Assembly (NCBI RefSeq): GCF_050920415.1
Contig: NZ_CP169309.1
DNA: 64,000 nt
Strand: one strand, 5' to 3'
Source of the DNA: Escherichia coli
GTDB lineage: Bacteria; Pseudomonadota; Gammaproteobacteria; Enterobacterales; Enterobacteriaceae
Made by a program: the position numbers and the translations under genes. Of this stretch, positions 45,241 through 45,821 are shown in pieces; the stretch's first letter is position 1, and each line of letters begins with the position of its first letter. The notes beneath the pieces were generated by a model. The model saw nothing but the letters and a program-made list of their open reading frames with translations, ran no database searches and was not told where the DNA came from.

Positions 45241-45417
45241 CTACAGTTTCTTAATTAATAGCCCATTATCAAGTAATAATTGCATTTGCTCGCGGCTCAT
45301 TAGTGAATCTTTCCAGTATGGGTCATCAATAGTCATAATCATCACTTTGTCGCCTTTTAGCATGTAGGCTATACCGAACAAAGTATGTGAATAAACACCA
45401 TCTTCGATCTCATTCAT
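45241..45417 (-). CDS. small protein, paralogue family member (58 aa)
   Basis: MNEIEDGVYSHTLFG...; ATGA-coupled to upstream paralogue. Confidence 0.4.
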   Translation of the reverse strand: MNEIEDGVYSHTLFGIAYMLKGDKVMIMTIDDPYWKDSLMSREQMQLLLDNGLLIKKL

Positions 45418-45596
45418 AGTCCGCTAACCCTTACCACATCGCCGTTATAAAGCATGATTTCAATCATTGCTCGCGTCATCTCGATGAATGGCTTCCTCCA
45501 GTCACCACCATCAATACAGACACGAATATCATCACCTTCCACGCGGTAAAACATCTCGTCGATTAGTGTTACGGCGTATATACCATCTTCAATCAT
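45414..45596 (-). CDS. small protein, paralogue family member (60 aa)
   Basis: MIEDGIYAVTLIDEMFYRVEGDD...; shares DG[IV]Y..L......Y..EGD motif. Confidence 0.4.
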   Translation of the reverse strand: MIEDGIYAVTLIDEMFYRVEGDDIRVCIDGGDWRKPFIEMTRAMIEIMLYNGDVVRVSGL

Positions 45597-45821
45597 TTAA
45601 CTATCCTCTTTGAATAGCCTAAATTTAATATCGCCAATCTTGCGCCAGTATCCGTGATTAAACATCGCGATGATCTCCGCAGATGTCATAGTTAAAAACG
45701 GTTCATGCCACGGCTCAAGCTGGTGTAATCGCATCATTACGTGTTCACCTTCAAGGCGATAATAAGCGCGTGACGCCAATGACTGATAAACACCGTCATA
45801 TTTATGGTCGCTATTTCCCAT
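45597..45821 (-). CDS. small protein, paralogue family member (74 aa)
   Basis: start MGNSDHKYDGVYQSL with AAGGGG RBS. Confidence 0.4.
   Translation of the reverse strand: MGNSDHKYDGVYQSLASRAYYRLEGEHVMMRLHQLEPWHEPFLTMTSAEIIAMFNHGYWRKIGDIKFRLFKEDS

Follow-up and report, generated by a model that had tools for sequence, protein, structure and literature searches.

Lambdoid phages carry stx and other morons between Q and the lysis genes. The locus described here resembles this arrangement in that its accessory genes lie downstream of a Q-type antiterminator gene and upstream of a holin gene, with a content that varies between relatives, but it differs in that ~24 overlapping genes form one chain without autonomous promoter/terminator units, and in that it belongs to a non-lambdoid group. 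Among small phage proteins, the RNA polymerase inhibitor Gp2 of T7 is built of a small sheet and one helix, and the three proteins that are our subject are like it in length (58-74 aa, as against 64 aa for Gp2), in net negative charge and in their sheet-plus-one-helix build; homology to Gp2 was rejected (hhalign probability 0.2%). All three proteins match PHROG 15318 nearly full-length, a catalogued family that, because it has no functional annotation, says nothing about their role. The element that carries them is a prophage of the mEp021 (mEpimmI) type, a group of Nus-dependent, non-lambdoid temperate coliphages (PMC11893012). The trio genes are not discussed in that paper, the only one on the mEp021 group, and its supplements make no mention of gp45, the single family copy of mEp021.

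The features of the window, by which we mean the whole 64-kb stretch of Escherichia coli DNA that was analysed, are as follows.

45597-45821, minus strand: g74, 74 aa, start ATG at 45821 with an AAGGGG Shine-Dalgarno sequence; optional first copy of the trio
45414-45596, minus strand: g60, 60 aa; its ATG abuts the g74 stop
45241-45417, minus strand: g58, 58 aa, last in the array, with a start that overlaps the g60 stop (ATGA)
45811-46011, minus strand: 66-aa predicted two-transmembrane protein (phrog_10061; transmembrane segments read from sequence)
45241-51047, minus strand: post-Q accessory array of ~24 small overlapping or abutting genes, with the trio at its promoter-distal end
51048-51770, minus strand: Q-type antiterminator gene (Pfam Antiterm) with DnaJ-like CxxCxGxG motifs
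45160-45178, minus strand: intrinsic terminator t5 (GC hairpin, then a T-run), located downstream of g58 and ahead of the holin gene
45136-45220, minus strand: conserved ~85-nt element that contains t5 and hardly varies within the group, with hypervariable sequence upstream of it
43984-45135, minus strand: lysis cassette, comprising holin (44935-45135), lysozyme (44442-44933), Rz (43984-44454) and an embedded Rz1 lipoprotein (~44052-44246)

On sequence comparison, g74, g60 and g58 are tandem paralogues of one small-protein family. Pairwise BLASTP connects g60 with g74 (E 5e-9), g58 with g60 (E 6e-8) and g58 with g74 (E 8e-4), and the phrog_15318 profile matches g58 at E 2.6e-19, g60 at E 6.2e-28 and g74 at E 1.3e-6, over positions 1-57, 1-59 and 4-54 of its 60, respectively. 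The family HMM, which g74 matches at E 3e-34, finds these three genes and no other ORF over the window. The preliminary description had reported three tandem paralogous genes upstream of the lysis cassette; its coordinates are right, the BLASTP values and the common PHROG profile bear it out, and the similarity of the paralogues thus passes a check by alignment statistics. The motif that it proposed is close to correct: DG[IV]Y and the final glycine are common to all three proteins, but its EGD core varies (KGD in g58, EGE in g74), and the corrected common motif is DG[IV]Y...Y.[LV][EK]G[DE]...W...G, its shared features being DG[IV]Y, the tyrosine of strand 2, a glycine in the next turn, a tryptophan and a helix-capping glycine. 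Likewise, an ATGA overlap is present at the g60/g58 junction but not between g74 and g60, which meet as TAAATG with a 0-nt gap; tight coupling is borne out. RefSeq also calls g74 as 74 aa in the nearly identical prophage of E. coli O157:H7 LSU61, the database homologues of g74 all start with MGNSDH (protein P0049, from E. coli databases, is 100% identical), and alleles of this class are 65 or 74 aa long. HMM and profile-profile searches among the other array genes find no further family member, the top candidate reaching 18% probability. This best candidate is a 121-aa array protein (49704-50069, minus strand) whose residues 18-45 (FYQQPFLKEWDDMLNDILDKGLIMEVDE) resemble the Trp-loop, helix and last strand of the family (HMM E 0.025 within the array; hhalign 18%), a likeness that could be an old fusion remnant or mere chance.

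Starts and stops of the array genes overlap or lie no more than 13 nt apart, with the exception of one 108-bp gap (47734-47841). Syntenic arrays are present in MagusPhagus, mEp021 and LSU61; relative to LSU61 the window is a mosaic, 98.5% identical near the trio and less so elsewhere. Gene content of the region differs between related phages, in agreement with the hotspot proposed earlier. The name "moron" that came with that proposal is not appropriate: the trio is no classical moron, because there is no promoter upstream on its strand and the genes belong to an operon-like overlapping chain, overlapping or abutting their neighbours, without a promoter or terminator of their own and with t5 as the sole terminator, serving the whole array. 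No sigma-70-like promoter is predicted on the minus strand in 45200-46100, and a search for the late promoter, covering the t5 element and the stretch after Q, turned up no sigma-70 site that convinced. The 108-bp gap was considered as an essential late-promoter site and rejected, because it is deleted in the genome-length contig L031. The 66-aa membrane ORF overlaps g74 by 11 nt and is coupled to the first family member in most genomes. The product of mEp021 gp41 was found in purified virions by mass spectrometry (PMC11893012), which shows expression of the array in lytic growth.

Several other genes and elements of the window deserve mention. The homologue of gp41 is a 71-aa array gene (48795-49010, minus strand); gp41 is annotated as a virion structural protein, an odd one to find between Q and the lysis cassette. 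Three adjacent minus-strand genes of 71, 70 and 94 aa (47842-48057, 48067-48279 and 48269-48553; profile-profile probabilities 80%, 69% and 28%) are probably a second tandem paralogue set within the same array, and two of them, together with the 83-aa gene at 46147, have the N-terminal motif Cys...F[TP][TP]G..Y. At 47286-47305, in a 13-bp intergenic gap, lies a GC-rich hairpin (8 pairs, 6 G-C) that is terminator-like on the plus strand by scan. Outside the array, the gene at 38854-40248 (minus strand; also L003:660-2033) is, in the RefSeq annotation of LSU61 and of one other prophage, an "anti-CBASS protein Acb1 family protein", and its equivalent in the mEp021 and MagusPhagus records is a portal protein; the Acb1 name looks doubtful because no NCBIfam profile matched.

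Word-indexed searches of 5.8 billion proteins gave 48 clusters for g60, 23 for g74 and 9 for g58, and every source with a name is E. coli. When 1.84 billion representative proteins were searched exhaustively with the profile, about a dozen proved to be true members of the family, and one more was a fusion protein; bar the latter, the members with a recorded source are small E. coli prophage proteins. Long repeat proteins returned by the exhaustive search were discarded as spurious matches to eukaryotic Sushi-repeat proteins. In the collections searched, the family hardly occurs outside E. coli phages and prophages of the mEp021 (mEpimmI) type, where RefSeq labels its members hypothetical proteins. 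No family match was found for the trio among Pfam, NCBIfam and PDB sequence profiles, PADLOC gave no match at E <= 1 to the trio or the 66-aa membrane protein, and no homologue of the trio with a known role was found.

Gene order is fixed as g74, g60, g58 across 36 related loci, with copy number varying from one to three. The commonest state is g60 plus g58; g74 plus g60 and all three genes also occur, g58 stands alone in mEp021 and mEp515, and the g74 type stands alone, in its 65-aa form, in three prophages. All seven cultured phages of the group have at least one family member directly upstream of t5, and prophage loci retrieved via the holin and t5 DNA, and not via the family, all have at least one copy at the junction. 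The subfamilies are 23-34% identical to one another and each has its own orthologues across many prophages, which indicates that the duplications are old; the "expansion" of the preliminary description, read as a recent event, is contradicted by this ancient divergence.

Deletions of up to ~3 kb within the array have given rise to in-frame chimeras (L031:3001-3162, L032:3001-3216, L034:2020-2322, which is mEp013 gp60, and L037:1894-2061; proteins P0003, P0071, P0085, P0086 and P0097), one of which belongs to a phage in culture that forms plaques. In some, the N-terminus of another array gene (relatives of 46147, 48067 or 48269) is followed by the C-terminal half of a family member; in others, two family members are fused at the DG.Y or EG[DE] motif. 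As the protein search detects in-frame fusions only, their being in frame is not usable as evidence of selection. The one fusion protein from the exhaustive search (P0100, L030:259-762) is a 167-aa protein of a T7-like metagenomic contig, which combines the Pfam domain dGTP_diPhyd_N (PF18909) with a C-terminal family-like domain that aligns convincingly with the family at DG.Y, VEG.D, DGG, W, G and V.VS (E 8.6e-4 in the search of 1.84 billion proteins). This lone case hints at a tie between the family and nucleotide metabolism.

The AlphaFold2 model of g60 (pLDDT 96, pTM 0.82, from a 45-sequence alignment) runs from three strands (residues 5-9, 15-20 and 23-28) through a loop that carries the invariant Trp33 and a helix (42-51) to a last strand (54-59), and g58 shows the same order of elements in a linked model. 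The trio products are thus predicted to be soluble single domains of ~60 residues, with three antiparallel strands, a Trp loop, a helix and a final strand. They were compared with the Sm/LSm-like and other SH3-like small beta-barrels, the Sm fold consisting of an N-terminal helix and five bent strands. Net charge by residue count is about -6, -3 and -1 for the three proteins; the acidic N-terminal/strand-2 motif is invariant, and the loop after strand 3 is variable. Foldseek finds no close structural relative in the PDB. In the BFVD set of predicted viral structures it finds many small uncharacterised proteins of unrelated lytic phages (TM 0.7-0.78, probability ~1), among them proteins of Escherichia phages IME347 and NBD2, Aeromonas phage T7-Ah and RB43; the fold is like that of the trio, but identity is 13-26%, E values are 8e-3 or worse, and none has a known function. 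An obligate g60-g58 heterodimer was also considered: in a glycine-serine linked model (pTM 0.45) both domains are folded without confident packing, a weak negative given the shallow alignment, and co-variation of the two alleles is contradicted by their independent assortment (in MagusPhagus g58 is 97% and g60 55% identical to the window).

The family, already catalogued as a PHROG, is best filed with the small accessory phage proteins of variable regions; it stands out in two respects, its unfailing presence where the array meets the lysis genes in the genomes examined and the want of a solved structural relative. We tentatively favour the reading that the trio encodes partly redundant, acidic, protein-binding accessory factors made in lytic growth before lysis. 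The genes would be transcribed with the right-hand operon during lytic development, a timing that we infer only, since the late promoter of the group was not located, and transcripts ending at t5 would allow the trio to be made without the lysis genes. DG.Y, Y.xEG[DE], the tryptophan and the helix-capping glycine would hold the fold and an acidic patch, leaving the strand-3 loop and one face of the helix to vary freely, and the proteins may serve as stoichiometric protein-binding modules in host takeover or counter-defence. Partial redundancy would explain why copy number ranges from one to three and is never zero in the genomes examined. The unvarying place of the family next to the holin gene may, alternatively, be a sign of a role in lysis.

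Patterns of substitution bear on the idea, put forward in the preliminary description, that diversifying selection in an arms race drove the tandem expansion and the sequence diversity of these proteins, which would act in anti-defence or exclusion. Several observations agree with it: amino-acid identity to the window is low in the family (53-78% for g60, 58-97% for g58) compared with the adjacent holin (91-97%) and the lysozyme (92-100%), copy number varies from one to three within a variable accessory array, and replacement changes are concentrated in codons 26-40 and on the helix, with variability focused in one loop. However, median pairwise dN/dS (Nei-Gojobori) is 0.23 for g58, 0.25 for g60 and 0.35 for g74, compared with 0.08 for the holin and 0.06 for the lysozyme, and even the most variable loop has a pooled pN/pS of 0.48-0.60, with very few sequence pairs above 1. 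With these medians and the pooled loop value below 1, the pairwise estimates indicate relaxed purifying rather than diversifying selection, and the sequences indicate that the trio are real coding genes, less constrained than the lysis genes. Because dS is also raised (0.37-0.59 in the family, 0.27 in the holin), part of the diversity, and probably much of it, would represent old alleles moved by recombination. The paralogues are ancient, showing no recent burst, and their acidic N-terminal/strand-2 motif does not vary. We therefore consider an arms race of this kind unlikely.

The second alternative concerns the lysis genes, which match Phage_holin_2_3, Phage_lysozyme and Phage_lysis in Pfam and are separated from the trio by a 105-bp spacer. 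The terminator t5 sits in this spacer and is annotated in the mEp021 record as TERM_5, which we take to be the t5 listed among experimentally shown terminators (PMC11893012). RNA of the t5 element (45130-45245) is predicted to place the terminator hairpin atop a long stem (MFE -34.3 kcal/mol, z -4.15), in which the conserved upstream 45 nt pair with the Shine-Dalgarno sequence and AUG of the holin gene; as all pairs are invariant, covariation is silent on this stem, for or against. A boxB-like hairpin upstream of t5 was considered but not retained, since its pairing is disrupted in natural variants, and an Rfam search of 44000-52500 gave no match. In nine prophage loci (L005, L006, L007, L014, L015, L018, L021, L026 and L028) the g58 homologue is separated from the t5 element by an extra ~250-bp cassette. 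The cassette, which codes for a ~76-aa protein (MEEMILLSLIWHRFGSEKGY...), has the direct repeat AGCCGTATTTGT on its flanks, and its position looks like a discrete insertion site.

With this arrangement, the trio could be regulators of the transition to lysis, namely cytoplasmic partners of the holin or of the 66-aa membrane protein, or factors acting on t5 read-through or holin translation. Against this, the trio is cut off from the lysis cassette by a strong terminator, and hypervariable family alleles contrast with a holin, a lysozyme and a t5 element that hardly vary, the break in homology falling exactly at the g58 stop codon. The net acidic charge speaks against RNA binding, and the 66-aa membrane gene is missing in mEp021, mEp515 and several prophages that retain a family member. 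Such a regulatory role is improbable on these grounds.

A third possibility is that the genes are evolutionary passengers that do little or nothing and persist because they are linked to their neighbours and must leave translational coupling through the array intact. Passengers would fit the weaker selection on the trio than on the lysis genes, the frequent deletions that fuse array genes into chimeras and the low GC content of the trio, at 41%; yet each subfamily has a dN/dS well under 1, the predicted fold is a confident one with invariant core residues, and at least one copy persists in every genome examined despite frequent deletions nearby, making this distinctly unlikely. We find it quite improbable, too, that the prophage expresses the trio in the lysogen from a constitutive promoter for the benefit of its host (superinfection exclusion or defence), with t5 keeping the lysis genes silent. 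The trio does lie on the promoter-proximal side of the lysis-gating terminator, and between Q and t5 no terminator with a comparable hairpin is predicted except a candidate inside an ORF at 49435-49454. But no promoter was identified, PADLOC gives no match, the ~60-aa soluble products have neither enzymatic nor membrane features, and the exclusion functions known in the mEp021 group, the repressor and Lpp lipoproteins, are encoded elsewhere (PMC11893012). Finally, if the family were a new kind of small beta-barrel protein, locked in position and setting the timing of the lysis genes through the holin or the t5/holin-leader junction, this would explain why at least one copy is kept there while upstream genes are gained, lost and fused, although we regard it as very improbable.

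Our result chiefly corrects the attractive, unsupported reading of the locus as an arms race, and the locus documents how an accessory operon changes by gene deletion and fusion. If a function were found for these proteins, it would annotate the family in hundreds of E. coli prophage copies, and also a fold seen time and again among small uncharacterised proteins of many lytic phages.
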